In this document: positions 4,577-60,413 of the stretch, piece by piece
Numbering within the stretch: the first letter of the stretch is position 1
Layout: every line of letters starts with the position of its first letter
Assembly: GCA_951406725.2 (NCBI GenBank)
Contig: OX597821.1
Coordinates: 27,590,001 to 27,654,000 of the forward strand
Direction: 5' to 3'
Origin: Octopus vulgaris
Lineage: Eukaryota
DNA length: 64,000 nucleotides
The notes under the pieces: generated by a model
Seen by the model: only the letters and a program-made list of their open reading frames with translations
Databases searched by the model: none
What the model was told of the DNA's origin: nothing
Program-made: the position numbers and the translations under genes

Positions 4577-4621
4577 TTATTTTACCGGTTTCATTCTTTG
4601 GAAAAAGATTGTCAAAAGTAA
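4577..4621 (-). ncRNA. Minimal type I hammerhead-like motif, U3-A8 core variant
   Basis: Minus strand: ttactt TTGACAA tcttt-ttcc-aaaga at GAAA CCGG TA aaataa. Stem I pairs 5/6 and stem III is the palindrome ACCGGT. Confidence 0.5.
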
Positions 4622-12685: not shown

Positions 12686-13595
12686 GTATATATATATATT
12701 TATATACACTCATTCATGTTTAGTGAACCGGAGGAACTATAATATTTTTATAGCCATCAACGATAGTTTTTCACCTTGATGAATGGGCGAATTGTATGAT
12801 ACCGATCAAGTGGTTTTAAAGGAATTTGATTTATATGCAGCCAAATCAGACCACCAATGAACAAACGATTCAGCAGTTACATCCGTAACAACAGAGTTAA
12901 ATATTTTGTTGTTTCAAATATATGACATCGGTGTGCAGGGATTAAATCCGTGATAACTTTAATGATGCTTTATTTCTTTACTTTCGTTTATATTCGATAT
13001 TTCTTTAGCTTGTTTAATGATGTTCTCCAAAACACAAACTGTCAATCAAATATATAATGGACAAACATCAAGTATGGTAAACTATTTGGCAAAAAGGTTC
13101 CTCTGTGAATTTTAAGCTTTTCCATTACTTTCCAATGCGTATTGTATATTTGATTTCGTTTTAGAATATTTGAACTTAATGAATTTTGCTAAAAGAAGCA
13201 GCAAAATTAGAGTCTTCCTTGTACAAACAGTAATCTGCAGCCTTCCTATTTAAAGGGAAAAACTACACTGCTGCATTTCCCTCTCCTCCTCATCCTCCTA
13301 CTATTACTTATACAGCTGATGGCACCACTATACTGCTACCGCCACCATCAGCACCATAGATACTACTAACACTTTCTAAGAAATTGACCAAACATTTTGG
13401 TTTTGGGAGGCGGCAGGTCGACGACATCGACCCCAGTGCTTGAATGGTATTTATTTTATCGACCTTGGAGGGATGGAATAAAGTCAATCACAGCGAAAAT
13501 GAACTGAGAACGTAAAGTGGAACCAAATACCGCTAAGCAATTTTCCCCGGTTCGCCGCATTGCTGCGACTAATGATATCGATAATCATAATGATG

Positions 13596-13644
<49 letters not shown>

Positions 13645-13648
<4 letters not shown>

Positions 13649-14663
13649 CACAAGGAAGCTGACAAATACAAACAAGAAATCATACCACCTAATAAACATG
13701 AAGAAGAAGAAGAAGAAGATGAAGAAACAACAAAAGCTATAAAACAAATGAAATCCAAACTAAAAACAGAACAGCAACGAACCATGATAAAACGATGGCA
13801 AGAAAAGCCCCTTCATGGTAAATACTGCACTAAACTAAACGCAAAAGAAATAGACAAAGAAAAATCCCAGCAATGGTTGAGAAGCTCAGGACTCAAAGCA
13901 GAAACAGAGGGATTTTTAATTGCAGCACAAGACCAAAGCCTCCCCACCAGAAATTACCAAAAACATGTAATGAAAAGAAATATTACAAGTAACTGCAGAA
14001 TATGTGGAGATGGACAAGAAACAATAAATCATATTATCTCTAGCTGCCCAGTCCTGGCTAAGAAGGAATATATTCACAGACATGACAGAGTTGGAACCTA
14101 CATACATTGGAAGCTATGCCAACATTATGGAATAACAACAGAAAAAAGATGGTATAGGCACACACCAGAAAAGGTCACAGAAAACGAGAAAGCAACCATA
14201 CTCTGGGATATGCCGATACACACAGATAGAGAAATTAAGGCCAACAGACCAGATATAGTTGTCAGAGATCATGAAGAAAAAAAATGCTTTTTAATTGATG
14301 TATCAATACCGGCAGATGACAACGTGTCTCTAAAAGAAATGGAGAAACTCTCAAAATACAAAGACCTGGAAATAGAGGTAACTAGAATGTGGAATCTGAA
14401 AACAGAAACAATTCCTATCATAGTAGGTGCATTAGGCATGATAAAAAAATATTCAGACAAATACATAACAAAAACACCAGGACTTACAAACACATATAAC
14501 ATACAGAAAATTGCACTACTAGGCACTGCCCACATCCTACGCAGAACACTTTCCATACAATAACCATCAGAGCATCACAACAAATCACAGCACATACCCA
14601 AGGCACACAGAGCTGCGCTCGGTAGTGAAGTGAAAGCACGCTATAAAAATAAAAATAAAACTA

Positions 14664-14862: not shown

Positions 14863-15842
14863 AACAACTGTGTCATTGATTATCGGAGCTTCAGGGTTAA
14901 TATCAAGTATTATCAAAATATAATACATGGGCCGAATAACAAATTAACAAATGAGGAGAACACGAATGAATTATAAACTACACATGTTATACAAATATAT
15001 AAATCTTGAAAGAGAAGGGTATAGATCTCGAATCGAATCACCAGCTTAACTCTATCGAGAACGACACAAATCCAAATTCACTCTGAATATATGCTGCGAA
15101 TATCTTCTTCAATCTACTGCACTCCCTTGTACATACTTCAAGGACTTCTAGTCATTCCAGCATTTTGTATTACGGTTCGCAATCTTTTCATTACAAAAAG
15201 AGCAATTTTCTCATTACACTCAACATCTCTTCATATGTAACTTAAAGAAAAACAATTGGTAAGGGCTTCAACGAAGATAAAGGTGTTCGATTTAGGGTTA
15301 AGGTTTTGGAGGAAAACATATATCTCTGTGCGGTTAAAGAAGAGACGTGCTATGATACAATGGATATTGCCGATAGCTAAGTACGTCCTACACTCACAAT
15401 TAGCTGTTCAACATACCTGCACAAGTCAGAAACGCTCCAATACCGAATGCATGCCTGCTGCAGAGTTTTGGCATTTTCGATACATTCCACGCAGATCAAT
15501 CAGACCACACTGTAGAATTAATATCGTATGCTTTCTCTGTAGCGTTGCCAAGTTGAAAATTTCTGGAAGCTATCCCAGGTAATCGTAGACCAAATATCTT
15601 GAGGAATAAAATATATAGTCTTCCCGTATCTCTGCTCAACGTCACTCAGTATGTCGAACTGCCAATCATCATCTTTACTTGACGCAAGATTTCAAGTCCT
15701 TCAAGATGACAGGCAGAAGTTGAATACCGATATTCAACGGTTAAAGTAATATTTACGGTTTTCTGAGATGTACACAGTAAGTGAATTAACTTGATTAGAC
15801 GAGGACACAGGAAACCAATGATTTAAATTTGGAACAAACCCT

Positions 15843-16294
15843 GGATCTTTTCGGTTTGAACGGCAGTTTTTAACATAATTTCTAGGTAACTAAAAAATGT
15901 TATACTTCGTATACTGGTAGAATGTGTTTATAAAACATCTTTTTCTCTTGGCTTTATTGAGAAAATTCTATAGTTTGTAAGATATTTGCTGTTTTTGTTT
16001 GTTTTTTTGAATTTCTGCAATTTCAACCACTCGAAGACGTCCATTGAGTTAAAAAAACATTCTGTGATGTATGAATATGCTCCTCGTTTAAGAAACAGAT
16101 TGGGTTTATTTACATTTGTGAAGAAAAAAAAGATACCCTTCTCCCCACCCCTAACCCTATTTCTAACCCTAACCATAACTAACCCTAACCCTGAAACAGA
16201 TTGAAATGCAATAAATCGATACTAGGGTCATAATTATGGGTGACAATTTCATATGACACCGCTAGAAAAAATTGCCGTTCAATCCAAAAAATCC
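15843..16294 (-). mobile_element. MITE (GGATCTTTTCGGTTTGAACGGCAG TIR family), opposite orientation to the other copies
   Basis: ~28-bp TIRs, internal (CCCTAA)n, and a degenerate 8-bp TSD caaaccct/aaaatcct. Confidence 0.85.
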
Positions 16295-16599
16295 AAAATC
16301 CTTAATACATAAATATCATTTTTAGCAAAAATACATAAATCTTGAGAATTATTATTGAATATCTCTTATCTAATGAAAAAGTATTGTATGATTATCTACT
16401 ATCATTTGTAATATAACTAAGCCAAAGACGTCCGTATAAGATATCACGTGTTTTCACTACAGTGCTAGTTTTTGAGTAAGTTGAACGGTGAGTAGCCAAA
16501 CAAAAATTAACTGAACCTGGGTTAAGCCTGTCTATAATGGCTGAACAGCTACCAACAAAGTTAAGAAACACAAATCTGATGTTAATTTCATGAGATTAC

Positions 16600-17053: not shown

Positions 17054-17309
17054 TACTTATGTATGTACATATGTGTTTCCGTCCTCGTAATTCAACGGTT
17101 CCACATGGATTTAATCACATGGATCGCAATCCTCCAAGGTAATTTTTTCAAGAACTATCATTGAACTCGAGATACACAAAGACTTTACAATGTATCGGTG
17201 TACCTATTTTTTAATTTTTGTATATGTTTATTATTTTTTTTTTCAAAAAACAATGTAATTTTCTTTTCTCCCCCTCCTCAATTATAAAAAAAAATTATTT
17301 TCACCATAC

Positions 17310-17351
17310 AATTCTTGAAAAGTAGCATTACGACGAAAACCGGTTTGAATT
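17310..17351 (+). ncRNA. Minimal type I hammerhead-like motif, U3-A8 core variant
   Basis: aattc TTGAAAA gt-agcattacg-ac GAAA ACCGGT TT gaatt. Stem I is 5 bp and stem III is palindromic. Confidence 0.55.
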
Positions 17352-18089: not shown

Positions 18090-20700
18090 TATACTTGGAC
18101 TGAATTTGGACTCAGAACGTCAAGTCGGAAACATGCCGCTAAGTATTTTGTCAGGCGCTGTAACGAATCTACAAACTCACGGTTTTTTTACACGGGTAAT
18201 ATTACGCGCAGGGCCGGGCAGCAAGCTGTCAGAATCATTAGAAAGTCAGTCAAAAAGCTCTGTGCATGAATTCAAATTTTGGCGTGGCCGACTTTGCCTT
18301 TCATCCTTTCGGGGATGAAAACATAAGTACCAGTTGATCACAGGGGGACGACGTACACATTTCCACGAAATTGTTGGCCTTGTACCAAAACATCATCACA
18401 GAAATAAACTCAAAAGCACTCACTCGGACAAGTTTTCGCAATAACCTCGAACGCGCAACCAAAATGATTGAAACATACCACCTTTACTTACACAATCTCG
18501 TTCAACATAGAAAGAAAATAGAATAGCGTTCTTACTGTATTCTGATTTCAGATTTATCTTTCATCTTTTCAGAGTCGACAAAGTTTAGTAACAGTCAAGA
18601 ATTAAGATCTGAATATTCAACTTACCCTACCCACAAATTCTGGCCTGCGTCTATGTAAGGATATGTTATCAAAAGTAAACTGCACTATAGGTATAGGTCA
18701 ACGCAAACCTTAAATAAACTGGATTCAATAATAAAACCATTTACTCCGCTTCACTGCCATTTTTTTTTGTCAAGAATGTTTGTATAGAAATTTCTGTACA
18801 TCTAGAATTCCAGTAGGTAATTTTTTTAAATTTCTTAAATGATTTTTTTTATCATTGCTTTACACTCACGCAACCGTATTGAGATATTATTGTTAAAATT
18901 TCCAAAGAAATACTCTCTCTTCTGTTCGGTATTGTATTCAGTTAAACAACTTCCCGATTCTCGCAATCTTTGATATATACAATATATAATTTTTATTCAA
19001 TTCAACAACATCTCTCGGTGTTGAATCACACGCGTTTAGTAATTTCACTGTCTTCCCAAGAATTCACATTCACGTTAGAATGCTCTGGGCAAGTTATATA
19101 TGATTATTCAAACATTTTCTAACGTTAATTTAATTCCTTTTTCTAGACTTGCTTAACTTCTCAGTTTCCTGAAACTCAATTACTTGTCTCATATGTACAT
19201 TTAAAAAAGTGTTTTAAAAATAACATATTGTATACATAACACGAGCCCCAATTTCTTTTCTTTTTTTATATTTTATGTACGAATTATTACATCGTTAATC
19301 TTTACATTATGTTTTTGAGACGTAGATGTTTTATTTGGACAAGTTTTAATATCCTGTTTCAATTTTCTTATTTGCCAAATACTGTCAGTTTTATTTATTC
19401 TAGAGTAGAATATAATGCAGTTTAAATCGACAGTCTGATTCGCTTACTGTTAGGAGAATAATTTTTATTTAATCTATATCTATTGAACGACATACCTGAA
19501 GCCACACGTCAACTGGAACAATATCTTTTATAACAATGTTACTATAGCAAATGTGTGTGAAACTGCGTGATAAGAAATGGCTAGAAAATGACTAAAATTT
19601 TAAAATATTATTGAACGTTATTGTATCTGAAAAGAGTAGCTAGACACATTATTTTCTAGTTCATCTGACTGAGAAAATGTAAATCCTTTTAGCTAAGCAT
19701 AAAAGGTTCATAAGTCGACCTTGTCTTGCGTCAAATGGACAGCATACTCTGTTAGCTATTTTACTATTGTGTCACTTTCATTTTAAAGTTTCTTGGAAGT
19801 TATGGCTTTACATAGCAATACATTTTTGGTCGTTGGCCTCAATTTCCAAGCGCTGTGATTGTTTGAACTAAAATATTTAGCAAAATCACATGTATCCAAT
19901 CCGGTCAACATTCAACTCTTTATTTCACACGTGTATTCAGTGATATCAATATTTACTTCACATGAATGCAACATACATCAAGCAGCTTGGATTAATCTGT
20001 GACTTTCCTTATGTAAAGTACAAATGCTTGTGGTGCAGATTTCAGTGAGCGTATATACCATCATAGTTCTGTAAATATCATTGCTTTCTTCAAAGAAATA
20101 CAATTTGTTGTTCGAGGAGGCTAGTTTTCTCTGCCCAATTGTCCTACCGTCATGCATTTTTCAACGCATATCCAAGAAGATAGAAACTAACATTCCACTA
20201 TCATCTTCCTCTACATGTTCAAACTAGGAGAAAATTGATGACTGCAGGAACAAGCGGGAGGGTGTCTCTCAATTCAGCCCACTCTTTTCTGCATCCCTCA
20301 AACGAAAATGCTTGCCGTAGATATAGCACAAAGGAAAGCTGAATGTTATTCATGCTAAAAAAAAATAGTGGTAGGATAATATTTATAAGCTCAAATAGCA
20401 AGTGTCTCAGTAACTGTCCAGGTAAATTCAGTAGTCGGCAATTTGGACACTGCTAGAACGCATAAAGAAAGTTTTGTTGTGTAATGCTCATTTCGCATAT
20501 GTCCTTCTTACGGCACGTTGTGTATGATATTCTACGAGCATCTCCACACAACGTCTTTTCTCGTTAATAGTTCTCTAAAGAAAGCGAACAATTACAACGG
20601 ATCTTTGACCAACGAGTATTGTGTTGTAATTGACTGAAAAGAGCGGTAAGGCTTTGTGTAACGGAACATTTCGTCTCCACATGCTCTGAGGACATCTTTT

Positions 20701-21107
20701 GGATCTTTTCGGTTTGAACGGCAGTTTTACTAGCGGTGTCATATGAAATCGTCACCCATAATTATGACCCTAGTATCGATCTATTGCATTTCAATCTGTT
20801 TTAGGGTTAGGGTTAGGGGTGGGGGGAAGGTTATCTTTTTTTCTTAACAAATGTAAAAATGTTTCTTAAACGAGGGACATATTCATACGGCACAGAATGT
20901 TTTCACCTCAATAGAACGTCATTGATTGGTTGAAATTGCAGAAATTGAAGAAAAAAAACAACAAATATCTTACAAACTATAGAATTTTCTCAATAAAGCC
21001 AAGAGAAAAGGATGTTTTATAAATACATTCTACCAGTATACGAATTTCAAAGTGTTTAGTTACGTGGAAATTATTTTAAAAAACTGCCGTTCAAACTGAA
21101 ATGATCC
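20701..21107 (+). mobile_element. MITE (GGATCTTTTCGG TIR family) with perfect 8-bp TSD
   Basis: TIRs at both ends, TSD catctttt at 20693-20700 and 21108-21115, internal (TTAGGG)3. Confidence 0.92.
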
Positions 21108-21439
21108 CATCTTTTCACCGGTCGTTAGGTTGGTCTTCCAAGTCATCGCCACTTCACGTCACTGCGACAGAAATGCTACATGCACCAATTAGTGACTTTG
21201 ATGTCCTAGGTTGGGACTATGTATTAGATTTATATTCTCGGTTGATCTTGCTTCTGTAATTATTGAAGACTGCAACTAATTTATGTATAATGGGTATACA
21301 AGGAGTGTGAGAAAATATTACACAGTCGAATTCGAAAAATGTTATTGGGGCAATGAATTGAAGAGTAGGACGGTAAATCATATATGGAACTGGAATTGTC
21401 TGATAATAATAGTAATAATAATAACAATAATAGTCATAA

Positions 21440-27509: not shown

Positions 27510-28400
27510 TAAATGTCCGATTTTGAACGGAAAGTATGTTTTATTCTATCTCAACAAAGAGCAGTGCATTTATTCAAAGTATGCACCGAAATCCTTTAAC
27601 ACTATTTTGCCTTTTTATCAGTAGCTTATTTATACTGGCAGCGAAGAATTCTAGAGAGCAAGAGGTGGTGAAAACAAGAAAATCTGTTTTTGCATCTTCC
27701 TCAGATTTGAAGTGTTTTTCTTTGCAAAACGTTGTCTAATGCCTGGAAAACGTGATAAAAGTTGGTGCATGGTCTCCTGAATATGGTGGATAACAAGGTA
27801 CTTCCAAGTTCAGTACCTGTAACTTGAGTAACGTTTTCTGCACATGTGGTCGAGTATTGTTTTGCAAGAGAATTGGCCTGTCTCTGTTGACGAATCCCGG
27901 TTGTTTAATTGCAAGTTCACTCATCATTTCATCCATTTGGTTAATGTATACATTCGCTGTAATTGACCTGTGAGGTCTCATGAAGCTATAGTTGATGACC
28001 CCAGCGCTAAAGCACCAAACATACACCATTACCTTTCTTCTTTTGGTAAATATTCTTTTTTGGATTGTGGTTTGGCAATTCGTTTCTATCCACCGAAAGT
28101 ACAGGACACTTGCTATTGTTGAAGAAAACCCATCTTTTATCACACGTAACAATACGATACAAAACTGTTTCGATTTTATGCCGTGACAGCAAAGAACAGC
28201 AAGTTTCAAGACGACGTGGGGCTTGATGTGCGTTCAGTTTGTGTGATACCCACTTGTCCAGTTTCTTTATCTTGCCGATGTGTTTCAGATGGTCCAATAC
28301 TGTTGGAATCGAAAATCAAACCTTAATGCTAACTCACGCGTTTGAGATGTGTCCGCGTTCATTATAATTTCCAGCTCAGTATTATCCACCTTTGGTCTCA
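27510..28400 (-). pseudogene. Decayed mariner transposase
   Basis: Frameshifted fragments KKLDKWVSHKL (WVPHEL), RIVTCDKRWV, KVMVYVW, PILLQNNTRPHV and PPYSGDHAP (YSPDLAP). Boundaries are approximate. Confidence 0.85.
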
Positions 28401-30282: not shown

Positions 30283-31573
30283 CGAGGGACGTTCAATACG
30301 TAATGCCTCTGACCAACTTGCAGTTGTTTGATCTAGCTAAAATGTTGCATGTGCAATTATTTATATCTCTATAGATTAAGAGGCAAATTACAGTTCTGAA
30401 CACATTGTGATTTATGATTTACAGGTGTTTGAACTGAGTCAAGTGCGAAATAGAGCATGTTGATTGACGAGCAGTGATCCGGTTTTTGTATTTGAAAGGA
30501 CGTACACCACGGGATACATTTGAATTAATAAAAGTAACTTATGGTGATGATGCCCCATCATATGACCTTGTAAAACGCTGGTATCGTGAATTCAAACATA
30601 GTCGGTCTCTGTGGAAACAGTTCCCAGATCTGGTAGCCCCCCTTCTGCCATTGATGAGGCATCTGTCCGTCAAGTTAAAGCTGCCATTTTGGAAGATCGA
30701 CGCATAACTATTCGCCAAATAGCCCATGGGGTCAAGATTAATACCGGGTCTGTGGAAACTATCATTCATGACCACTTGCATATGCAAAAGGTATCTGCCA
30801 GAGGGATTCCCAGGCTGCTCACACCTTTCCAGAAGCAAGAACGCGTCGAGTGCTCGAGGATGAATTTGGAGATGTGCCAAGAAGATGAGTCAAAATTTTT
30901 CAATAGACTGATTACACAGGATGAAACCTGGGTCCATCACTATGATTCAGAGACCAAAGCCCAGTCAATGCAGTGGAAGCACCGTGACTCACCTCCTCCA
31001 AAGAAGGCAAGGGTGTAGCCCTCCGGTGGCAAGGTCATGCTCACAGTCTTCTGGGACCAGGACGGAGTAGTGATGACAGATTTCCTGGCAAAGGGTACGA
31101 CAATTACACGAGCCTATTATGCTTCACTTTTGACGAAATTAAGAGAAGCTATCAAAATCAAGAGGCGGGGGCAAGATCAGCAAAGGCATCCTCCTCCTGC
31201 AGGACAACGCTCCGGTCCACAGCACGCGTGTCACCAGATCAAAATCACAGGTGTGCGGTTATGAACCTCCTCCCCATCCCCCTACTCTCCCGGCCTTGCA
31301 CCCTCTGATTTTCACCTCTTCCCAGCCATGAAGTTATTTTTGAAAAGAAAGCGTTTCCCAGATGATGCAGCCTTGATTTCTGAAGCCACGTCGTGCTTGG
31401 AGGACCAAGCTGGGGTTTTCTAAAAAACGGTCTCCAGAGCTGCATCAAACAATGGGAGAGATGCGTAACTCTGGGTGGTTTCTATGTACACAAAGACTAA
31501 TAACTGTGCCACGTTTCGTTGCTCTACTGCTATGGGAAGTGGGTCAGGGGCATTACTTATTGAACGCCACTCG
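30283..31573 (+). mobile_element. Full-length mariner (DD34D-type) transposon with inactivated transposase
   Basis: TA|CGAGGGACGTTCAATACGTAATGCC...GGCATTACTTATTGAACGCCACTCG|TA gives imperfect TIRs and a TA TSD. Motifs: IRFLYLKG, SARGIPRLLT, ITQDETWVHHYD, LQDNAPVH, PYSPGLAPSDFHLF. Frameshifts and stops are present. Confidence 0.93.
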
Positions 31574-33611: not shown

Positions 33612-34269
33612 GATAAGAAAATAGAGATGTACTTATTTATTAATTCAAAAATTGACAAACATCCCTTACGTATGTTTCAATTCCAGACCTTCCGAAAATT
33701 AATTAATGAAATTAAATATTCTTTGAAAGTCAAATGATTTCAGAGGTAGTTTAAGATACACAGTGTAGGTGTTCCATTATTGCATGTTGTGTAAACGGTT
33801 GCAAACCGTTAACTGGTGAGATTTATGCAGAAACAACATCATATAAAACATAGTATAGAAATGGGAGTAAAGTATGAATATTGGAATTGTAAAGTAAGAA
33901 TAGAACACTATATTTATCTAAAGTTTTAAGTATAAGAAACATTTAAGTATATATATTTGGTAAAAATGTTATATTGTGATATTACGTCCATCTGCATTAA
34001 ATCAATAGAAAATTAGTATTCAAGTGTGTATATTATTATTAATATTGAATAAAGGTGTATAAAGGGTGAACATTTCTATATGCTACGTTGGATACATTGG
34101 TCGTTCGTCTGGTATGTTGATTTCGTCCATTAATTGTAAATCTTGTGTACTGAGGAGTAAAAAGTGCATTACTACATTAATTATGAAATCACGGTGATAT
34201 GCAGCTAAATCATGTTTTCATATGACTTGCTTCGAGAGTTGCATTCGGTACGATGTGTTTATTTATTTT

Positions 34270-34342
<73 letters not shown>

Positions 34343-34448
34343 AGTGAAATAAACTACAGAAGGCTTGTTTTATAAGGTTAAAGAATATATTTAAGTCGTT
34401 ATGTTAGAAGAATGTTATAAAATTTTTCATATAGTAACATAGTTTTTG

Positions 34449-34487
34449 AAGAAATTACCGGTTTCGTGTTAACTTTTCAAATTTCTT
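34449..34487 (-). ncRNA. Minimal type I hammerhead motif, U3-A8 core variant
   Basis: Minus strand: aagaaat TTGAAAA gt-taac-ac GAAA CCGG TA atttctt. Perfect 7-bp stem I and a GUA cleavage triplet. Confidence 0.65.
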
Positions 34488-35041
34488 AAATGTTTTTACC
34501 TACATCGTGTCATGTCTTCGTTATGCAGTACAAAGAAGAGTTCCAGGCAGGGGGAGGTAATAAGCGATTTCTTCCGGTATAAGGGAGATAATCACTTTAT
34601 ATTTCTTTTCCCTTTATCTAATGGGGAGAGTTTCTCTGTATAAGAATGTTCGAGTGGTTAAGTTAGGGTTTATATTTTTCAATGAAGAATGTTTCCTTGT
34701 TTAATCTAATTTGTGTTGGTATTCCAATAGCACATTGATAGAATGAAAATATTAAGAATTGTGTTAGTAGTTGCTTTGCGCATTTCTCAATATGCTCACT
34801 AAAGGGTATCATTCTGTACTCTGGGAATGCAATCTGTTGTCGATGCAGAGAGATATTGTGTTTTGTAATATATAACATATATCGTGTCTATGAAATAGCT
34901 TTACAATTTTCAAACTTCCGAACTTCAAAGTGTAAAGATAAATTATCGCCTCCCACTTTCACATATATACTGTCTATAAAGGAAATGGGCAATACGTTTT
35001 TCTATTTGGGCTATATCTTCTTCCATTCTGCGTGTGTGCAT

Positions 35042-38499: not shown

Positions 38500-39706
38500 G
38501 GGGATACAACTGTTACCGCAAAACAATCAGCCACCTCTTATATATGAATGACCAAAAACCGTACGCTACAAATGACAAGCAGCTGGAAACATTACTACAG
38601 ACAGTACATGGGTTTCCCAAAGAAATAAATATGAAATTTGGCTTAGAAAAATGTGCCAAAGCCGCTTTGAAAACAGGAAAACTAGTTAAGAGTAGCAACA
38701 TCACGCTAGATAAAGCAAATGAAATAAGAGAATTAAACCAAAGCCAGACATACAAATATTTAGGAATCAGTGAACCAGATGCGATACAACACACACAAAA
38801 GAAAGACAAAACTGTAGACGAGTTAATACTGAACAAAATGTCATAGCGACAAACAAGATAATAGGCATCAACACTCTAGCCGTCCCAGTTACAAGTTACA
38901 GCAATGATATCCTCAACTAGACACTAAATGAACTAACCAAAATACATAGGAAAACCAAAAACATAATGACAGGATGTATGATGTACCACTTAAAATCTGA
39001 CATATAGAAGGTGGTAGAGGCCACATATAGCTAGAAAACTATTACAAATAAACCGCCATATGACTTCAAAAATATCAACTTCAAAACCAAGGAAAACTAA
39101 TACAAGGATCCACAAAACACGAACAAGAAAACTGTTTTCAGTCGTCACCGACACGACAAGTTTGGGGCCTACATACACGGGAATCTATACCAACATTATG
39201 GAATAAAAAAAGAAAAAAGATGGTATAAGCTCACGCCAGAAAAGTTCTCAGAAAATGTGAAAGCAACCATACTATGGGATATGCCAATACACACAGGCAG
39301 AGAAATTAAGGTCAATAGGACAGATACAGTTGTCAGAGATCATGAAGAAAAAATGCTTCATACTTTATGTATCAATACCAACAGATGACAACCTTTCTCT
39401 AAAAGAAATGGAGAGACTTTCAAAATAGAAGCATCTGGAAATACACGTAACTCGAATGTGGAGTCTAAAAATAGAAACAATTCCTATCATAGTGGGCACG
39501 TTAGGTATGATAAAAAAAATATTCAGACAAATACATAACGAATACACCAGAACTAACAAATATATATAACATTCAGAAAACAGCACTACGTAAAACATTT
39601 TCAATACAGTAACCATAAGAGCATCACAGCAAACCACAGCATGTACCCAAGGCACACAGAGCTGTGCTCAGTAGTGAAAGTACGTAACAAAAATCAGACT
39701 ACTGCA
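38500..39706 (+). mobile_element. Decayed, internally deleted copy of the R4/Dong-type LINE at 13.6 kb
   Basis: RT motifs ISHLLYMND and INMKFGLEKCA, plus YKYLGI. 39140-39700 aligns by eye with 14070-14665. Ends in (TAA)n. Confidence 0.88.
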
Positions 39707-41749: not shown

Positions 41750-41802
41750 TGTATGTATGTGAGTGTGTGTATTAAGGGAAAATCAAGTTTACAACTTAAA
41801 GA

Positions 41803-42239
41803 GGATCTTTCCGGTTTGAACTGCAGTTTTTTCTAGCGGTGTCATATGAAATTGTCACCCATAATTATGACCCTAGTATTGAGCTATTGCATTTCAATCT
41901 ATTTTAGGGTTAGGGTTAGTTAAGGTTAAGGTTAGGGTTAGGGTAGGTATGAGAGGAAGGGTATTTTTTCTTCACAAATGTGAATATACCCAATCTGTTT
42001 CTTAAACGAGGGACATATTCATACGGCACAGAATGTTTTTTACTCAATAGACGTCAGCGATTGGTTGAAATTGCAGAAATTGAAGAAAAAACAACAAATA
42101 TCTTACAAACTATAGAATTTTCTCAATAAAGCCAAGAGAAAAATATGTTTTATAAACACATTCTACCAGTATATGAAGTTTAAAATTTTTTAGTTACCTA
42201 CAAATTATGTTAAAACTGTCGTTCAAACCGAAAATATCC
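41803..42239 (+). mobile_element. MITE (GGATCTTTTCGG TIR family)
   Basis: TIRs, TSD cttaaaga/cttaaagg, internal TTAGGG-like array. Confidence 0.9.
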
Positions 42240-42930
42240 CTTAAAGGTAATTTAAACTTAACTTCCCCGAGAAGGCATTTCCCCTCTCAAGGCAGAATGA
42301 ACGACTGTTAACTCCTCCGAGGCTATCTCACAGACCTTGATGAAATTTGACATGTGTGAGAGGCTTATGCCCTTGCAGTCACTTACGCACTTGGAATTTT
42401 AAGAAAATTGATTTTTAATCAGCATCGATTTTTCAAAAATCGTAAAATTTTGGCATTTTTCGAACTAGCCATCGTGTCATCAATTTGACGAAATATGTTT
42501 CATGTGTATAAACAGACAGCTTATTAAAGGTAATCTATTTAGTAATTGCTAATTATTCATTCCAATGCGAATTGTTTCGATTTGCTAAAACATATTATTT
42601 CAAATCGCTGTTTGAATTTCCCAGCGTTTCAGGTTTTGATTAGGGAAGAGTATTCTATTTCTCAAGCAAAATTTAGGCATTTTGCTCACTAGCCGTCGTG
42701 ACATCAATTTGACGAAATCTGTCCCAAACCGCAAAATTTCGCTATTTTACGCACACGCATATAAATGACGACGACACGAGTTCGCTACCAGATTCTGCTA
42801 ATTTTTTCGTCAAATTAGTCCTACCCATTAATATAGATCCGAAAGTTTGACGAAAAATGTTTCATGCGCGTGTACCGTTGGCGATTTTGTTTCCTCTGTC
42901 TTCCCTTCCCTGGATCTTTCCTTTTCCTAT

Positions 42931-42965
42931 GTTTCTGACGAAGAGCTCCGCTCGTAACGTAAAAC
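42931..42965 (+). ncRNA. Ultra-minimal hammerhead-like motif (GAAA mutated to GTAA)
   Basis: gttt CTGACGA a gagc-tcc-gctc GTAA cg TA aaac. Confidence 0.55.
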
Positions 42966-43064
42966 CCTCCTTCTTCCCTTCCTTCCTGAGCGTCCAATAA
43001 TACTATATTTGTTTCACATCCTCGCGTTGTTGTGTTTTCTCTTTGTGTTTTCATGTTTGGATTA

Positions 43065-43127
<63 letters not shown>

Positions 43128-45336
43128 TACGGGAAATCAAGCTTGCAATTTAAAGATAATTTAAACTTAACTTCCCGACACAAGAAGGCCTTTTCCCCTC
43201 TGAAGGGAGAATGAACGCCTCTTAAGTAAATGGATTTATATTCTACACAAACCGATTTGTATAATCTACATCAGATTACAGATACCAATAAATTCGAGTA
43301 GATCATTGATGTTGCTTTCACAAAGTTTATCTTCGTGCGGATTTAAAATGTAAGTTCACCAATGTGTAAACACTCTTTTAGTTTCGATGGAAAATTTCCT
43401 GGAAGAGATTCTGCCACTTGCTCTAAGTCTCCCTGTTGTAGAAATGTGATACGGATGTAATAATTTGTCAAGATTTTTGGACATTTATTTGTGACCGTGC
43501 ATCTCTTCATGTCTTTCTATGGAAAAATGACCTGTATCTCTTTGCATCTCATTGAATTCAATACTCCGCTAATTTCCATAATAATTCTAAAAGCATAGGT
43601 AAATATATTTATGTTTTCTACCACAGTGTTTTAGGGACATTGGCTATTGAATCTTGATTTTTATGTTTATTAAAACTAGCTGAATAGCATGTCGATGCCG
43701 GGTAAAATGTCAGATTCCAAATCCTGTTTTCTGATTAGGTAAAATTGATTACACTTTAAAACAGTAACATCTTTCTGCAATTTTTTTCTGCAACAAATAA
43801 GTAAGAAAATCGGATTTAACGTGGAAGATTATTTCGATATAACAAATTTGAAAGTTTTGACGTAATTCTAAAATTTCACAATATGTGCCAGCCACGGGTA
43901 AGACACTACAAAAGTAGAGAGACATATAGTTATAGGACGTCGCACACACACACAAACACACGCACAAACACACACATTTACAAACAGACACACAGGCTAT
44001 CACGAGTTTAAAATGGTGTATAGCAGACATTTGTATGTATTTATGCATGTATACACGTATGCATGTATATGTATTCTCTCTCTCGCTTTGTCTCTTCTTT
44101 CACATCCCCCTTTCTTTCCCTTCCTCGACATTTTAAAAGTTAGTCATGCGTAAGTGCTTGTGTGTGTGTGTGTATGCATCTATCTATGTATTTATGAAAG
44201 TACGTATGCAGCGTCGCGTGTATATCCCTGAATGACAGCTGTATTAACGTTAACATCCCACTGCCACTCCGTGTTTGTTGCTTACACAACGCTATTCTTC
44301 CCTTCCCTGATATCAGTTACATTCAGTGTGCCACTACATTTCCCTCACGCTAATACTCAAGCACCCTTCTCATTTTATCAAAAGATATCTCACCCTCCCC
44401 TAGTGGGCCATTTATAGATTGTCATTGAAATCCAGTTAGTCTATAATTGAACTGGATTTTAGTTTAACATATATGCAAAGTTAAAGATGGTAACAGACAA
44501 ATCGTTAGATAAAACTTGTAATTTATATATAAGATACAGTGTTTGCATTACGATGAAAATTAAACAACATACTACACAAAACGGTTCATTAATGTGTGGA
44601 CAGAGAATTGGGATTCTTCTGTGTTATGTTATATAATGGGAAGAGCTACAAAATTGATTTTGATATATATATATGTTGTGTGACCAGGATACATCGTCAT
44701 ACTCTGTGGATTATAATATTTTACTCGAAAACTCAAATTGTTGGCAAGATAACTGCTATCAGCCATAGATATCGGATGCTGAATCGATGTTGGGAATGGG
44801 TTGTTTTAATCATCTATTTACGAGCATTTATAAGGTAATTACTCCTAGAAAAGCAATTTCAGAATTTTATTCTTAAATATTTTCACATCACTTATAAATT
44901 ATTGAGAAATAGAATTAATATGTGATTCATTACACATGTTCATGTATTGAAAGCCACTTAGATTGATGGCTTCTCGTCCTTATGGGGATGATTAATACGT
45001 GACGCTAATTTACTGATGCGAATCGCTCAACAAATGTTAGTCTGTCAAATTCAAAGAGTTAAATGTATTTCGAGTTATACGCTGGATTCTTATAGCTGAG
45101 ATCGTTTGATTGTGGTTGCAAATGGAATATCTATCGTTTACCTTCATTACGCCACAGTGAATTATAAATATGGCAAGATGTGAAAATTAAACAAAAATTA
45201 TTTCATATATACGGAAAAGCCAATAACAATTATAATACCAAAACTTTAACCTAGTTTGAATGAAGTCAATCAATGCGTCACTTCAGCCACAATCTGTGGA
45301 AAAATGATCTGTGTCAGTTCCATTACAAAAGTGAGG

Positions 45337-45369
45337 TTTTACGTTTCGAGCGGAGCTCTTCGTCAGAAA
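45337..45369 (-). ncRNA. Ultra-minimal hammerhead-like motif, intact core
   Basis: Minus strand: ttt CTGACGA a gagc-tcc-gctc GAAA cg TA aaa. Same sequence as the motif at 42931. Confidence 0.6.
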
Positions 45370-47680
45370 TCTCTATTTCAAACGTTCGGTTAAAAGACGC
45401 TAAAATCATGAAAATATTTTAAAACATTGAGAAAAAGTTTATATATATATATTTAAAATATTATTTAAGTGACATCTTCAGGAAATTACAAGGCAACGGT
45501 TTCTTCTGAATGATTCACTAGATATTTAATTATATTGATCATATTTACTTTTTTTTACTGACGATGTCAGCCAACGTAGCTTACTTCCCTTCGGGAAGAC
45601 TGGTGAAAATAATTCAGACATTCAAAAATATATGAAATGAAATACCAGTCTTTTAAATTGTATTACACTGAGTTAAGGATAACTACTTAGAGGAAAGACT
45701 AAGATAGATGCGTCTCTTGTAAGTTCATTCGTATATATTTTGTTACAGAGCTCACAAATGTAGATATTTGATAATATAAAGTGTAAAGAATATGGGTGAA
45801 AGTATGTTGTGAAGCTATAAAATGTAATGCGTTCTATGTCAGATATATTCTGAGGAAAATACGAGATTTCGGAAGAACGTTAATGGCAACTTATCTTGAA
45901 GTTGCTCGAATGAATTACGTAATCCTTAACTTGTTCTGTACATTCATAATGAGAATTTGCGTAACTGCTTGTGTATTATGAGTGTAGTTAGCGATTTTGA
46001 CCTTCTTTCTTGAATGTGTTGTTCCGTAGCAGAAAATCGAAAATCAAATGAAAATATGGCTGTCTACATTTTAATTGCCTACTACATATATGTTACAGCT
46101 TATCTACTTCAGAGTTCTGAGGCGATGCTGAATATAAGTATGTCTCAAGTATTAACTGGTTACCGTTAAGGAATAATTCAATGTTACATGACGTGACAAA
46201 TGTTAATATCTTCAGTATATCGTTACTGCTTCAACAGATGCACAGATACCCATCATAGTTACAGGTAATTTTGCCTTCATAATTTCACTTTGCCTTTTCG
46301 CTAGTGATGAATGTCAAATTGTTTTGTAAAATCATGACAGATTTTGTATGTATTTTTTTTCTTATTACTCAAACCTACTCAGTGTTCTTGTGTGAAATGG
46401 GGAAGCGAATAGTGCACTAATTCTTTTTCAGTTCCCAGTAAGTTCCATTTGGATTAGCCTGAATACAGTCGTTCGTGTAGTTTATGTGTTATCTACTTCA
46501 TTATTCTCCATAAATGATAAGAATACTATAGCACTATACAGTAAGATGGAAATCATAAATATTAAATAAACAACGGAAGAGAGAACGCTATAATTCAGTA
46601 ATAATTTACTGCTTTAGGCAAAAAGTAAAGTTTCATCTACCACTTATAGAGGTTAAGGTATATCATAGTGATAAGATATATGTTATATTCGGCAACAGCT
46701 ATCACTGTTTTGCGGGTTCGTACTTCAAATGACAAAGACGGCTGGTAATAATTAGACATCTTTTTAAGACATTATACCATTTAAGCAACGTAAACGTGGT
46801 TGTCCATCTGCTAGAAGTACTACCAATTCTTCCTTCACAGCTCACTTTGTAGTCGTAAACATTGTAGAATAAAATTCTTTTGCAAATAATGATGGAATAT
46901 GAAATTTTGTTTACATACGTGACCAGCGATGTCCTTGAGCGGTGCTAAATGGAAAATAAACATCTGTAATAATAATTGGCAATCTATTGATAGGTTGTTA
47001 TATGTATGAATATGTTCTACATGAACTATTTTTGTGGACGTTTGTTAGGGGAAATCACCAACGAATCACATGCTATTGTCTGCTTTGCTCGCTAACATGT
47101 AATATAATCTGGGAAATTTATATATCAAGAGGCGAAAGGATACTGGCTTTGAAAAGTACGTTACCTAGGATCAAACAACAGCATCTTGTTTTTAAAACAA
47201 TGCTTGAGAGAGTTCTATGTTCCCTTGTTATAACACTGACTCTAAACACTGAAGGCTTACAAACATTTTATTTTTTACATTTTATCGAATACGATATCAA
47301 ATACATTTTTTAATAATGAGTATTTCTAAATAGAATAACCAAAATATATACGAATGTTTATCATTGCAATTCCTTTTCACAGCACATATTAAATAAACCT
47401 TTCCTGTAATATCGCCTCTCGGATTTTAAGATGGGTTCAAATTACAAACCTATCACTTGTCAAAACTCATTTTGATTAATAACAATTAACTTTAAACTTG
47501 ATGTTCGTCTTTTCTTTCACCGATAATGATGTGGGTGTACTTATAGATGTATATTCCATGTTTATTTGCCTGTAAAATAAATTGTATACATACATATACA
47601 CGCGCGCTCACACACACAAACACCTAAGGTGGACTGTGACAGTAGTTAGCACGTCAAACTATATGTTTAGTGACATTTGT

Positions 47681-48119
47681 GGATCATTTCGGTTTGAACG
47701 GCAGTTTTTTTCTAGCCGTGTCATATGAAATTGTCCCCCATAATTTTGACCCTAGTATCGATCTATTGCATTTCAATTTGTTTTAGGGTTAGGATTAGTT
47801 AGGGTTAGGGTTAGTGTTAGGGGTGGGGGAAGGGTATCTTTTTTTCTTCTCAAATGTATATAAACCCAAACTATTTCTTACACGAGGGACATATTCATAC
47901 GGCACAGAATGTTTTTTTACCTCAATAGACGTCAGTGATTGTTTGAAATTGCAGGAATTTAAGAAAAATACAACAAATATCTTACAAACTATAGAATTTT
48001 CTCAATAAAGCCAAGAGGAAAAGATGTTTTATAAACACATTCTACCAGTATACGAAGTTTAAATTTTTTTAATTACCTAGAAATTATGTTAAAAACTGCC
48101 ATTCAAACCGAAAAGATCC
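47681..48119 (+). mobile_element. MITE (GGATCTTTTCGG TIR family)
   Basis: TIRs, degenerate TSD acatttgt/gcatttct, internal TTAGGG-like array. Confidence 0.9.
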
Positions 48120-49204
48120 GCATTTCTTCCGACAAAACATTCTTGATGTAAATCCGGCTGCGGTCGTTTTCGTTGTTCGTTCTTTGGTGGACGATAAAAC
48201 AAGTAATATTGTAGCATTGGGGTCGCAGAAATCGACATACCTGCCTCCTTTAAAATCGCTGGCCTTGTGCCAAATTTTGAAACCATTCAAACATAGATGC
48301 ATAGATACATACGTACATGAATTCATGCATAAATTCATACATGCGTGCATACAGACAAGCATGCATACATACACGCACACATACATACATACATACATAC
48401 ATACATACATACATACATACATACATACATACATACATACATAAATACGAAAACATAAATATGGCAACCGATACAGTGATACTACAACTCTAGAAAGCGT
48501 CAAATATCAAACATCAAAAATAAAATCGTTCTAGTTAATGGATAAGTTCACTTCTGAATGGAAGTGAAAATATGAAAATATATTTAATGTCTCAGAATTC
48601 GAATATATAATAGCATTGATCATGCTATTCAAAGAGATCAAAGATCATTTTATTTCTTTTTCTACAAGTCATGGTTCGTAACATACGTTGATCATTCATA
48701 GGTAAAGCAATGTTTTATGTTGTATACTATAAGATTTGAGACTTAATACTTATATACCGAAAAGTAATGAACATACCTACGAGTCTGCATTTATTTTCGC
48801 TTACAATTGCTTCGTATATTAAGTTTAAATTTGCTTCATGATCGGTACGAATGTCTGTAAAAACATCTATTTAATAGACAACAAAGGAAAAGAAATAACT
48901 AATAAATTATGGCAACTGTTACAATGTAGATGGGCAACATTATAGAAATCTATATTCTGATTTCTAGATAGAGAGTTCTACTTTCACTATTTATATGCAA
49001 CTATTCATTGTGTAAGGGTCTCCGCATGATGTTCTAAATTGCGAGTTATATTGGACAAGAAATAATGGAGCAAGTGATTAATATAAAAGAAATCTGAGAA
49101 AAATCACAGACAGAGACACGCACAACTACATATATATTTTTTAGACAACATATCACCTTTGAAGTATTGCACGTATTTCACTAAGACATTCTTATATAAC
49201 TGTC

Positions 49205-53110: not shown

Positions 53111-54090
53111 TCAGAGATAAAAAGTAATAAAGACAAAAATATTTGAAACCAATAGAATTTTCTAACCACTTAAAATATCTCGCCCGCTTCTCTCTATTTA
53201 TCTTTACCGTAAAATATCTTCACCATCTACATAGGAATTTTTTTACGGCTTCAGAGAAACCAAGAGCTTAATAATTATCTACGACTTCCCAAATCTCCAT
53301 CAAATATCTCTCCCAAATATTTTCTACATAAGTCGTACATCAGATAAACATATATTTATGCAAACAAGAAAAGGATGCTTTTGTTTTTCATTCCCTTTTT
53401 TTAAATTTAATATCTGAAAATGTTTTAAATTTGTTAATATTTAGACTTATTTGAAAATTGAATTATATTTTCATTCCTATTTTTACACATGAGCACATAC
53501 GCAGTTACTTACAATACCCCATTTTCACATATATCCGTAGGCATAACATAATATATTATATAATGCCCATTGTAAAGGCGGTGTTCCAGCATGGCCGCAG
53601 TCAAAATGACTGAAACAAATAAAATAGAGTAAAAGAGTAAGAGTCTAGGAGAAACAGAAGTTAAGAAATTTCTATATACACATACGGCACAGCGGTTAAA
53701 ATTTCTATAAAATTATCCTATTTCTTATAGAACAACGAACCCATAGAGAGAACGACGTTTAGACCTACCCATATCTTCTTGTAAACATCAAAGCACACGA
53801 TAAGTAAGTTTCCATATAAGCAACACCTTGATATGCTCGACTAAAAGCATACAACTTTCAAATATAAACAGGAAACATGCTAAATAACGTGTAAAGGAAC
53901 TTATTGACCTGCAAAACACATACCTCCTATTAATATTATCTTGTGGTGCTCTAAAAATAAAATTACAGAAAATAAGAGCTGACACACATAGTTACTAGGT
54001 TTTCAAATGCTAGACTAAATGTTGGTCTTTGAAATGTATATTGCCAAAGTAAATATTAAATTCAATAAAAGAAAAACTATAAAGAATTCC

Positions 54091-54495
54091 GGATCTTTTC
54101 GGTTTGAATGGCAGTTTTTTCTAGCGGTGTCATATGAAATTGTCACCCTAGTATCGATCTATTGCATTTCAATATCTTTTAGGGTTAGGGTTAGGGTCAG
54201 GGATGGGGGAAGGGTATTTTTTCTTCACAAATGTAAACAAACCCAATCTGTTCCTTAAACGAGGGACATATTCATACGGCACAGAATACTTTGTAACTCA
54301 ATAGACGTCACTGATTGGTTGAAATTGCAGAAATAGAAGAAAAACAAAACAAATATCTTACAAACTATAGAATGTTCCCAATAAAGCCAAGAGAAAAAGA
54401 TGTTTTATAAACACATTCTACCAGTATACGGAGTTCTAAATTTTTTAGTTACCTAGAAGTTATGTTAAAAACTGCCGTTCAAACCGAAAAGATCC
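54091..54495 (+). mobile_element. MITE (GGATCTTTTCGG TIR family)
   Basis: TIRs, TSD agaattcc/aaaattcc, internal TTAGGG. Confidence 0.9.
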
Positions 54496-54950
54496 AAAAT
54501 TCCTAATGACACGTACGCTGAATAAGCATCCCTCTACCTACTTCAATTTTGTGAACATTTTGTCCAAAAATCTCCTGAGCTGGAGCTGATATAACTAAAG
54601 ATATAAACATTATTTAGAAAGTTCTACACGCATGAATAACTTCCAAAAAATAGAATGAGGCAAAAACAAATTAATTAAAATTTCTCTAGCACACCTATCC
54701 ATCACAATCAGCCTTAAAACCTAATTACCAATGAAAAGACTCACAGAAACCACAGTGGAATCTATTTCAGACCAAGATAAACTTTATGCTTCACCGTCAG
54801 ATGATGGATTAGTTGGTGGAAAATTCGAAGTTATTCGAAGTTATATCCTCGTTAAGTATTAGTAAATCTGTATATACGTACGTACTTATCTATGTATGTA
54901 TGCACGTATATGTATGTACGTGTGCGTCCGTGTGTGTGTGTGTGTGTGTG

Positions 54951-55332: not shown

Positions 55333-55774
55333 TTTATTATATAGAAGGAGCTTCTACAGGACTAGTACTGTTTCATTCAAGAGAAATCTTCAGGAAGCTA
55401 TTTAACAAGAATTGTATTAGCATTTATACATTTAGGCAGGTTTAAAGGAGTGGTGGTGGGGGACTTTTTGGGGGTAGGCATAGCGCAAAATATCATACTT
55501 GGGGGAGTGGTCAAGGAGTCAGTGGTAAGTTAGATGAAAGAATAGATAAATAAAAAAATAAAAAAATAAAAAATAAAAAAATAAAATAAAAAAATAAAAA
55601 ATATAAAAAATATATATAAAAAAAATATATATAAAATATATATATAAAAAAATATATATATAAAAAAAGGGGGGATAGAGTTATAGGTAAATAAGGAGAT
55701 TCTCACTTATACCTATACACACATATATACGTATCTACACACACATACATACATACACATATATCTACACACAC

Positions 55775-55805
<31 letters not shown>

Positions 55806-55974
55806 CATATATATACATATACATATGTACACACATACATACATATCTACATACACACATACATACACCCGCCCACATATACAAATTTATACACATGCAC
55901 ATGCCTATACCTGTCTACACATACACACACGTATATATGCATACACTCACTCCCATGCATGCACGCATACACAC

Positions 55975-56009
<35 letters not shown>

Positions 56010-56711
56010 CACGACCACACATACATATATACACATAAAAAAATATATATTCATACGCACATACACTCATGCACACACAACACACCTAGTTCCCTATATA
56101 CACATATTTACACCTATATATACATACACCCACATACACCTATGTACACATATATATATATAAACATATACACGCATACATATATATACATGTGTGCACA
56201 TACATACATACACACATATATACATACACATACACATACACATGTGTACCTATACATACCTACACATACACACATACATACATACAAATATACATATACA
56301 TATATATATATACACACCAATACAGGCCCATTCCCTAATTTTAATTTTATTATCTTCATTTATTACTTTTGTTATCTTTGATCGCTAGGGCTAAGAATCC
56401 TGGCAATGGCTGCTTGTCCATTTGTCTGTCTACTAGAAGGCAAGTACTCATTCCCGCACGCACACTCATTAGCACGTACATTCACCCATTCGTACACTCA
56501 TACACATACACGTACGCACGCGTTATATTCATACATACAAACATCTACATACGTTCACGTATATACACATACGTACTCGTACCTACAGATTCGTGTCTAC
56601 ACTTTAGGAGGCTAGTCTATACATATACACCAATAAATATACATATATACATATATATACCCGCATATACATACACACACACACATATATACTCCTACAT
56701 ACAGATACATA

Positions 56712-56751
<40 letters not shown>

Positions 56752-57243
56752 CATACACATACACACATACATATACACACACATATACATACACATATAT
56801 ATATACACAAACATATATACACACATATATATATACATACACACATACACACATACATACGTATACATACATACATACATCCATACATCCATACTTACAT
56901 GCATTTATACGCATACACACACCCATCTATATATATGTATATATATATATATATATATATACACACTCACACATACATATACAAATCTACGCACACACAT
57001 ACATACATACACGTATACGCATACACGCACATACACATATACATGCGTACCCATACACGTGCACACACGCACGCGCATCCATATATATACACACACACAC
57101 ATATGTATACACGTGTGCAAGCATACATACATACTCATACGCGCACACATACTTACAAATACATATATGCACACACTTACACACATATATATACATACAC
57201 ATATACATGCATACATACATATATGCATACATACACACACGCA

Positions 57244-57289
<46 letters not shown>

Positions 57290-57348
57290 TATATACATAT
57301 ATAGATATATATACACATACATACACATACACATACATACACACATAT

Positions 57349-57393
<45 letters not shown>

Positions 57394-57519
57394 TACATAT
57401 ATACACATATACATACATATACATACACACACACATACATATATACATATACACATATACACATACCCATACATACACATGCATATACTTATATCACTAC
57501 ATACTCACATATATAAACA
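55333..57519 (-). repeat. Left arm of the ~2.2-kb inverted repeat (inverted pLTR copy)
   Basis: Reverse complement of 60190-62402, including unique islands (e.g. gatcgctagggctaagaatcctggcaatggc). The ORF track shows mirrored translations (56369+ vs 61364-; 56899+ vs 60802-). Confidence 0.95.
55349..55399 (-). ncRNA. Type I hammerhead ribozyme (left arm)
   Basis: Exact reverse complement of 62336-62386. Confidence 0.8.
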
Positions 57520-59128
57520 GCTACTTCACCCTGAAGGACCACAAAGACCATTTCGAAAATAAACCGTCGGTCCGTTTGATTAACCCAACCAAGTCTGACA
57601 TCGGATCCGTCAGCAAGAAGATCTTGGACAGGATTTTACCAAAATGCGTGAAGCTTCACCCTTCCACTCTGGAATAGGACCTCCGAGGCAATAACTTGGT
57701 TCCGGGATTTACCAGATAAAAGCAACACCCGATTCCTACAACTGGATATCGAGGATTACTACGCCTCTATATCGGAGAGCTTGCTGATCGATGCGATTAA
57801 CTTCGCCAGGAGGTCCTCCACCATCACCGAGGCCGAGCAAGATGTGATCCTCCACGCACGTAAGACTTTTCTTTTCTATGACGGATCCCACTGGATCAAC
57901 AAAAAATCTGTGACCCCCTTCGACGTCAGCATGGGTGCTAACGACTCTGCTGAAATAAGTGACCTAGTGGGCCTTTTCATCCTCCATAGGCTGAAAACCC
58001 TATTCACAGCCTCTCCGGTGGTCTTTACCGAGATGACGGCCTTTTCGCCCTCCACAATATAAACCCCAGGACCACGGATGGGTTCCGGAAAAATCTTCAC
58101 ACCTTCTTTAAAAACTTAGGCCTTAGGATTACCCTAGAATCCAACTTAACTAAGGCTAACTTCCTAGATGTCACCCTCGACTTAAAAACCTCACTTTATT
58201 ACCCGTACCACAAACCAAATGAATCCCTTAGATATATAGATATCAATTCCAACCACCCCAGAAATATATTAGATAACCTAGTAAAAAGTGTCTCAATTAG
58301 AATCTCTAGCCTGTCCGCCACGGAAGATATCTTTAAGGCCGCAGCCCCCTATTACAACGAGGCCCTGGCCCGCAGTGGTTTTAAAGATAAGATTACCTAC
58401 ACTAGTATAGCCCCACGCCAACCCAGGAAAAATAGACGAAGACACATTAGCTGGTACAACCCCCCTTCAACCGTGAGGTCGCTACACCTGTAGCTAAGAT
58501 CTTTTTCACTCTCCTACAGAAACACTTCCCCACCCAACATAAGTACTACACTATCCTAAATAAGAACACTATTAGACTCTCCTACTCTACCACGCCCAAC
58601 CTAGCCAGGAACCTAGCCAACAACAATGTGAAAAAACTTAACATATCTACTTTCTCCGGGGCCCATCCAACGTCCGATAGCAATTGCAACTGCCATGATA
58701 AAACCACCTGCCCCCTCAACAACAACTGCCTACAGAGGGACCTAGTATATAAATGCGAGGTAAGATCAGGCCTTGACGATAAAAGTAAATCCTACATTGG
58801 AATGACGTCAAACAGCTTTAAGACCCGCTGGTATGCACATACACACTCGTTCCGGCGACAGGATAAATCCAACCAAACTACCCTCGCCGCCCACATCTGG
58901 TACCTTAAAAGGAACTCAATCCCCTTCAAGACCAAGTGGAAACTACTACAGAAGGCGCGCTCGTACACAGGAGGACATACCTGCTGTGACCTATGCATAT
59001 CAGAGAGCCTAGAGATCTTGTTCGCCAAAGGCCCTCTCCTTAACAAATTTTCAGAACACTCCCCAAATTGCATGCATAAGAAGTATGCGAACTACAAGAA
59101 CTATAGACCTACCCGGCAACCTGATTGA
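57520..59128 (+). CDS. Penelope-like reverse transcriptase + C-terminal GIY-YIG endonuclease (5'-truncated, about four frameshifts)
   Basis: Joined frames: [65 protein letters not shown] (YRDD 58026-58037), [18 protein letters not shown], CNCx5CPLx3C, VYKC...YIGMT...FKTRW..H, CDLCISE, LLNK..E...CMH. Confidence 0.92.
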
Positions 59129-59367: not shown

Positions 59368-59412
<45 letters not shown>

Positions 59413-59780: not shown

Positions 59781-59813
<33 letters not shown>

Positions 59814-60315: not shown

Positions 60316-60350
<35 letters not shown>

Positions 60351-60413
60351 GTGTATATGTGTGTATGTATGTGTATGTGTATGTATGTGTATATATATCT
60401 ATATATGTATATA

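Follow-up and report, generated by a model that had tools for sequence, protein, structure and literature searches.

The stretch of DNA analysed here (the window, 64,000 nucleotides) contains three motifs with the layout of a minimal type I hammerhead in which core positions 3 and 8 are U and A, and one of them lies in the 3' part of a truncated Penelope-like element (PLE). All three were found, by sequence and with a descriptor search, where a first-pass annotation had placed them (Table 1).

Table 1. Features of the three motif loci. Positions are those of the window.
Feature	Position	Strand	Basis
Minimal type I hammerhead motif, U3-A8 core	34449..34487	-	sequence, descriptor and controls, dimer model
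Second U3-A8 minimal hammerhead motif	17310..17351	+	sequence, descriptor
Third U3-A8 motif, degenerate	4577..4621	-	sequence, descriptor
5'-truncated 3' stub of PLE (endonuclease C-terminus and 3' terminal repeat region), 510 nt, high-copy	34340..34851	-	contig coverage edges, tblastn
GIY-YIG endonuclease end, coding remnant	34630..34851	-	translation, identity to P0001-P0003, Pfam in P0003, tblastn
(TA)n tract adjoining the stub's 3' end and likely its insertion target	34272..34339	.	sequence
STVPHGFN peptide, like the [TS]xxPxGxN end of some PLE endonucleases	17092..17115	+	translation, motif search

Read from 34487 to 34449, the 34.4-kb motif has a stem I of 7 bp (AAGAAAU/AUUUCUU), the core UUGAAAA, with U3 at 34480 and A8 at 34475, and a stem II of only 2 bp (G10.1-C11.1 and a U-A pair) with the loop UAAC. 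GAAA, CCGG and UA follow, the palindrome ACCGGU being available for stem III; N17 is at 34456 and the predicted cut site falls between 34456 and 34455. The 17.3-kb motif combines a 5-bp stem I and the core UUGAAAA with a stem II made of 2 bp, an A.G mismatch and one further pair, followed by GAAA, ACCGGU and UU, and its palindrome is AACCGGUU. The 4.6-kb motif, read from 4621 to 4577, is clearly degenerate: its core is UUGACAA, its stem I consists of 2 bp, a mismatch and 3 bp, and its stem II either starts with two mismatches, U.U and C.A, or forms a 5-bp hairpin offset by two bases, before GAAA, CCGG and UA. The 3-8 pair is Watson-Crick (U3-A8) at all three sites. The stems I of the 34.4- and 17.3-kb motifs are within the 3-7 bp range of minimal PLE hammerheads, and G10.1-C11.1 opens stem II in both, with only 2 contiguous bp each, the corresponding position at 4.6 kb being U.U. 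Each motif had been described as lying near a (TA)n tract, and such tracts are indeed present on the 3' side of all three, at 110 nt (34.4 kb), 2 nt (17.3 kb) and 83 nt (4.6 kb), but 14-18% of arbitrary 40-mers in the window are equally close to one.

A PLE reading frame with a GIY-YIG C-terminus ends 150 nt before the 34.4-kb motif. The minus strand from 34851 to 34630 translates as a protein end (the last 74 codons) with one in-frame stop, and is 89% identical to P0001 and 66% identical to P0002 and P0003, which were all the candidates found. P0003 matches the Pfam families RVT_1 (1e-7) and GIY-YIG (6e-4, below the Pfam cut-off) with a CX4CxxC linker in between, the GIY-YIG match of P0002 reaches the cut-off, and P0001 has the linker and a weak GIY-YIG match; RT, CX2-5CxxC linker and C-terminal GIY-YIG are all three present in P0003. 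By tblastn, 69 of 152 PLE-like proteins matched 34851-34630. The 62-aa remnant itself gave no Pfam match, and a second PLE in the window, at 58.5 kb, has an endonuclease with which it does not align (E 0.7). In that part of the window, ~2.2-kb inverted repeats (55333-62402) flank a frameshifted RT and GIY-YIG PLE frame at ~57520-59128(+), and both arms carry a canonical CUGAAGA hammerhead-like motif (62342+ and 55393-) whose stem II opens with U.U.

Contigs from four public runs (three coded organisms) were matched to 34340-34900 at 80% likeness, and the stub region found matches in all four (2,279, 1,705, 700 and 183 contigs). Coverage spanned 34340-34852 (27 of 30 bins in each run), with a sharp edge at 34850 and none in 34853-34900, and loose contig ends occurred behind 34850 and before 34351, indicating that the family continues in other sequence behind 34850. 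Over the motif, summed depth exceeded the depth of the individual longer contigs listed by a factor of ~440 to 3,200 (three runs), a ratio that is not a copy number and supports only the description of the family as very abundant. As the family is high-copy, run X15, guessed to be RNA, carries no information on transcription of the 34.4-kb locus. Because of the endonuclease identity, the tblastn matches and the contig edges, we place the motif in a 5'-truncated PLE stub abutting (TA)n; as a single truncated copy, the stub probably has no activity. On the opposite side of this TA tract and facing it, 34150-34205(+) reads CUGAGGA, 28 nt, GAAA, the near-palindrome UCACGGUGA and UA; it has no clear stem II and may be another PLE end or a chance occurrence.

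At 17.3 kb, the core and the STVPHGFN peptide are on one strand, the peptide 223 nt upstream. The [TS]xxPxGxN pattern, picked after this peptide had been seen, occurs within the last 60 aa of 9 of the 152 homologues and twice in the 128,000 codon positions of the window. The upstream region gave no tblastn match at E<=0.05 with the 152 PLE-like proteins, and the peptide hints weakly that this motif may belong to another, different PLE family. The 4.6-kb motif is embedded in ~275 nt delimited by two (TA)n tracts, where no coding remnant was found, including by tblastn with the 152 PLE-like proteins, and no tie to a PLE could be made. The three flanks share no similarity in a self-BLAST of the window (E<=1e-3) or in pairwise alignments, where 43-281 of 300 shuffles scored as well; those of the 17.3- and 4.6-kb motifs have no match elsewhere in the window, and no second copy of the 34.4-kb flanks exists in it. 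Since the flanks cannot be aligned, several families are possible, and the motifs at 17.3 and 4.6 kb likely represent stubs of further PLE families that have this core as well.

Repeats of other kinds are also present in the window. A dispersed family of ~450 nt with short terminal inverted similarity has five copies at 77-88% identity (15831-16322, 20691-21116, 41779-42240, 47660-48130 and 54078-54502), and a LINE-like frame, whose zf-RVT match stays below cut-off, is represented by its 3' end at 13508-14629 and by a second copy at 39145-39678 (82%). Two broken frames, 27736-28315(-) and 30602-31308(+), resemble mariner-type transposases, the latter having weak HTH Pfam matches only.

Both strands of the 64 kb were searched with a descriptor that was open at N3 and N8 and required a stem I of at least 4 bp, or 5 of 6, and a palindrome of at least 2 nt. 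Four structured matches were obtained, three with U3-A8 and one with C3-G8 at 45366(-), and none with a single-change core. The expected number was 0.144 on average under an order-5 global Markov model and 0.096 under an order-2 block-wise model, and four matches were reached in none of the 500 simulations (250 of each kind). When the conserved letters of the core were permuted, 46 of the 47 decoys had no match in the real window and the remaining one had a single match. The C3-G8 site belongs to a canonical minimal hammerhead (45330-45372(-), CUGACGA, 4-bp stem II, CG palindrome), of which a 35-nt relative, 97% identical and with GUAA replacing GAAA, lies at 42932-42966(+).

These figures bear on the reading that the motifs are chance occurrences in AT-rich DNA, or C3-G8 cores that decayed independently. 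It should be considered that the descriptor thresholds were chosen after the three sites had been seen, that the 4.6-kb copy is poor, and that, once the stem requirement is dropped, the cores are all at background: U3-A8 occurs 5 times, C3-A8 4 times and U3-G8 twice, counts reached by 46, 46 and 165 of 250 order-5 simulations, respectively. The comparison with background comes out, at the scale of the window, in favour of the structured motif, with its 4 matches against 0.10-0.14 and no single-change core, but not of the bare core. Nevertheless, the simulations and decoys, the position of the motif behind a PLE endonuclease and the lack of any variant at positions 3 and 8 among the best 40 of 86 variant rows of the family (see below) make this reading extremely improbable, and for the 34.4-kb copy it is already largely refuted. 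A looser descriptor also admits one U3-C8 match at 32570(+). Rfam hammerhead families gave no match at E<=10 in 34345-34900, and none was among the best 150 of 314 rows for the whole window. Folding z-scores of the three motifs ranged from -0.7 to +1.5, those of two canonical motifs of the window being -0.2 and -0.3, and free-energy folding alone lends the three motifs no support. In metagenome contigs, a pattern with positions 3, 7 and 8 open had no match; related loci of alignment A1 were confirmed in none of 182 candidate stretches there and in none of 33 in viral contigs.

Variation within the 34.4-kb family was followed at frequencies of at least 5%, and the statements on it are based on the best 40 of 86 variant rows, the ranking rule being not stated. 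Among these, neither of the two core boxes (34474-34480 and 34457-34465) has a variant, N17 varies only between A and U (U at 46, 29, 43 and 29% of depth in the four runs), and both the NUH rule and the pairing of stem I are kept. The outer pair of stem I, A-U in the 34.4-kb copy, has in the family a G (98-99%) opposite U or C (C at 22-51%). The other 46 rows include up to two A>G and two T>C places of run X1, which could be positions 3 and 8; since the listed rows each amount to ~45% or more in at least one run, a form with C3 or with G8 among those 46 would be a minority, as judged by inference and not by count. U3-A8 is thus likely the majority state of this PLE family, which argues for a 34.4-kb core that was inherited rather than decayed. 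The first-pass annotation had taken the same double change at three divergent loci for covariation. It was right to set decay and chance aside, given the four structured matches, the simulations and the PLE context, but three independent swaps do not follow from the data: the flanks are unalignable, and one old ancestral swap explains the three loci equally well.

The motif, the endonuclease remnant, the high-copy family and the (TA)n junction are directly established. Taken as a whole, we consider it very probable that the 34.4-kb motif belongs to the tail of a PLE copy that is broken and 5'-truncated and whose family is very abundant, that it is a candidate for, and likely represents, the minimal hammerhead of that element, and that its 3-8 pair was likely inherited as U-A and not as C-G. 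In favour of the hammerhead identity are the Watson-Crick 3-8 pair in all four structured matches and, as far as the published consensus goes, the G10.1-C11.1 pair, the palindromic helix III and the AU-rich flanks; against it are a stem II of 2 bp, which is below the 3-bp minimum of the published descriptor (3-7 bp), and the absence of the usual extra base after A9.

Minimal PLE hammerheads are described as unable to fold helix III alone, dimerising via a palindrome and cutting weakly in vitro (PMC4209133), and the models of the 34.4-kb motif agree in outline with that picture. As a monomer, the motif had an active-stem probability below 0.04. Self-duplex energies were -8.3 kcal/mol for ACCGGU and -10.1 kcal/mol for AACCGGUU, and the 34.4-kb homodimer in the active arrangement reached -10.3 kcal/mol against a dimer MFE of -14.7, stems I and III being common to both. 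Active dimers and minima were -7.5 vs -14.1 kcal/mol at 17.3 kb, -2.7 vs -15.5 at 4.6 kb and -11.9 vs -22.4 for the canonical 45.4-kb control. The 34.4-kb dimer MFE pairs U3 with A17, which in this model is possibly an inactive state. Cross-family heterodimers were also considered and rejected, as the stem I strands of the three U3-A8 motifs pair over only 1-2 bp beside the core. By analogy with PLE hammerheads already described, the self-complementary ACCGGU stretches of two terminal repeats on one transcript, or of two transcripts, would join as stem III, and the stem I strands of one copy would pair with those of the other; the dimer so formed would be cleaved following N17, at a slow rate and possibly only when the element's protein is bound. 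The hammerhead of an Anolis PLE cut only in the presence of the element's protein and was dispensable for insertion in vitro (PMC11167929), so that the contribution of the ribozyme may be minor even if it works.

The Anolis work, in which ribozyme mutants were without effect on insertion in vitro and no RNA-seq ends fell at the cut site (PMC11167929), also fits another view of the 34.4-kb family: its motif would descend from a hammerhead but be catalytically dead or nearly so, kept as a dimerisation or protein-binding signal with ACCGGU as kissing site, and U3-A8 would be the product of AT-biased drift that became fixed in a master element. Such a view can be reconciled with the hammerhead identity proposed above and differs from it on function. 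The 2-bp stem II and the U3-A17 pairing in the dimer MFE are in line with it, and the changes concerned, C>T and G>A, are AT-directed transitions, the window having a GC content of 27-40% in 2-kb blocks. However, the 3-8 pair is kept in all four structured matches with no single-change core, family variation respects the NUH rule and stem I (best 40 of 86 rows), and other hammerheads with U3-A8 are reported to be active in vitro (earlier work cited in PMC3088659), which leaves loss of catalysis a possible but rather doubtful account. The first-pass annotation had also left the choice between a PLE and a non-autonomous lineage. For the 34.4-kb copy the former is borne out by the high-copy family and the GIY-YIG C-terminus 150 nt away, and the latter is not, the copy being a truncated one of a coding element. 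A non-autonomous, retrozyme-like lineage marked by all three motifs would suit the 4.6-kb copy, with no coding remnant in its ~275-nt stretch between TA tracts, but is very unlikely overall: retrozymes are non-coding tandem units bounded by hammerheads, whereas the 34.4-kb copy is contiguous with the endonuclease end of a PLE and its family continues upstream of 34850, no tandem units were found and the three flanks share no sequence.

A more far-reaching combination of claims was also considered, namely that U3-A8 builds a brake, with A17-U3 capping stem I over the cut site, that the family is split into braked (A17) and free (U17, 29-46% of depth) forms, and that several unrelated PLE families in one genome converged on U3-A8 and ACCGGU while remaining homodimer-specific through their differing stems I. 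Such capping would mirror the C3-G17 pair that has been proposed to account for the impairment, by a factor of at least 300, that G17 causes in minimal hammerheads (PMC3884650); no U3-A17 analogue of that trap was found in a literature search. All of this together we regard as unlikely. Whether A17 traps U3 is the one fresh and testable point of the present case.

The core swap is less surprising than it may seem, given that a natural covariation from C3-G8 to U3-A8 was published in 2011 (PMC3088659) and a U3-A8 descriptor for PLEs in 2014 (PMC4209133). The Cercyon PLE led to the minimal hammerheads of Schistosoma mansoni PLEs, for which that descriptor gave ~1,300 hits, and rows of the supplement include the cores UUGAAAAA (PLE-associated) and UUGAUAAA. 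As described there (Cervera and De la Pena 2014, PMC4209133), the Cercyon motifs share with ours the UUGANAA core, the type I layout without a stable helix III, the palindromic 15.2-16.2 region, G10.1-C11.1, the location in PLE terminal repeats and the occurrence mostly as lone truncated copies. Our motifs differ in a palindrome of 4 or 6 nt (CCGG, ACCGGU) instead of 2 nt, a stem II of 2 bp instead of ~4-8 bp, a stem I that reaches 7 bp, the lack of an additional base behind A9, a Neptune/Nematis-type linker and a different host. Short palindromic inserts between GAAA and UH and a dimer architecture are also seen in the PLE hammerheads with a small palindromic helix III of Drosophila, Aedes, shrimp and rotifer, but the cores in those rows are C3-G8 and their stem II is longer (PMC4209133). 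The U3-A8 hammerheads of Perreault et al. (2011, PMC3088659) have the same compensatory pair, and both a 2-bp stem II and a U10.1.U11.1 opening are reported for natural hammerheads there; many of the hammerheads described there have pseudoknot or loop contacts, of which none was identified in the window motifs, and no tie to PLE stubs is given in the sections of that paper covered here. In the EN+ PLE clades Neptune and Nematis (Craig et al. 2021, PMC8557442), RT, a CX2-5CxxC linker and, at the C-terminus, GIY-YIG are combined as in the relatives P0001 and P0003, together with a hammerhead near the 3' end and a (TA)n target bias, a likeness seen in the domain order of these relatives, the window itself holding the last 74 codons only.

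Both the core swap and its PLE link are therefore already in print, and the 34.4-kb copy is an ordinary new example; what sets it apart from the published cases is the combination of U3-A8, the CCGG palindrome, a 2-bp stem II below the minimum of the published descriptor and the host. The title of work by Lunse et al. indicates that many small PLE hammerhead variants are treated there, and cases like the present one may already be included. The present case adds a high-copy PLE family in another host, in whose predicted hammerhead U3-A8 is likely the norm and stem II is unusually short. Descriptors limited to CUGANGA and a 3-bp stem II miss such families, which may serve as a reminder for annotators. 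If the brake were real, the A17 and U17 forms would offer a natural set of variants on which to test how the speed of the ribozyme is adjusted in PLE replication.
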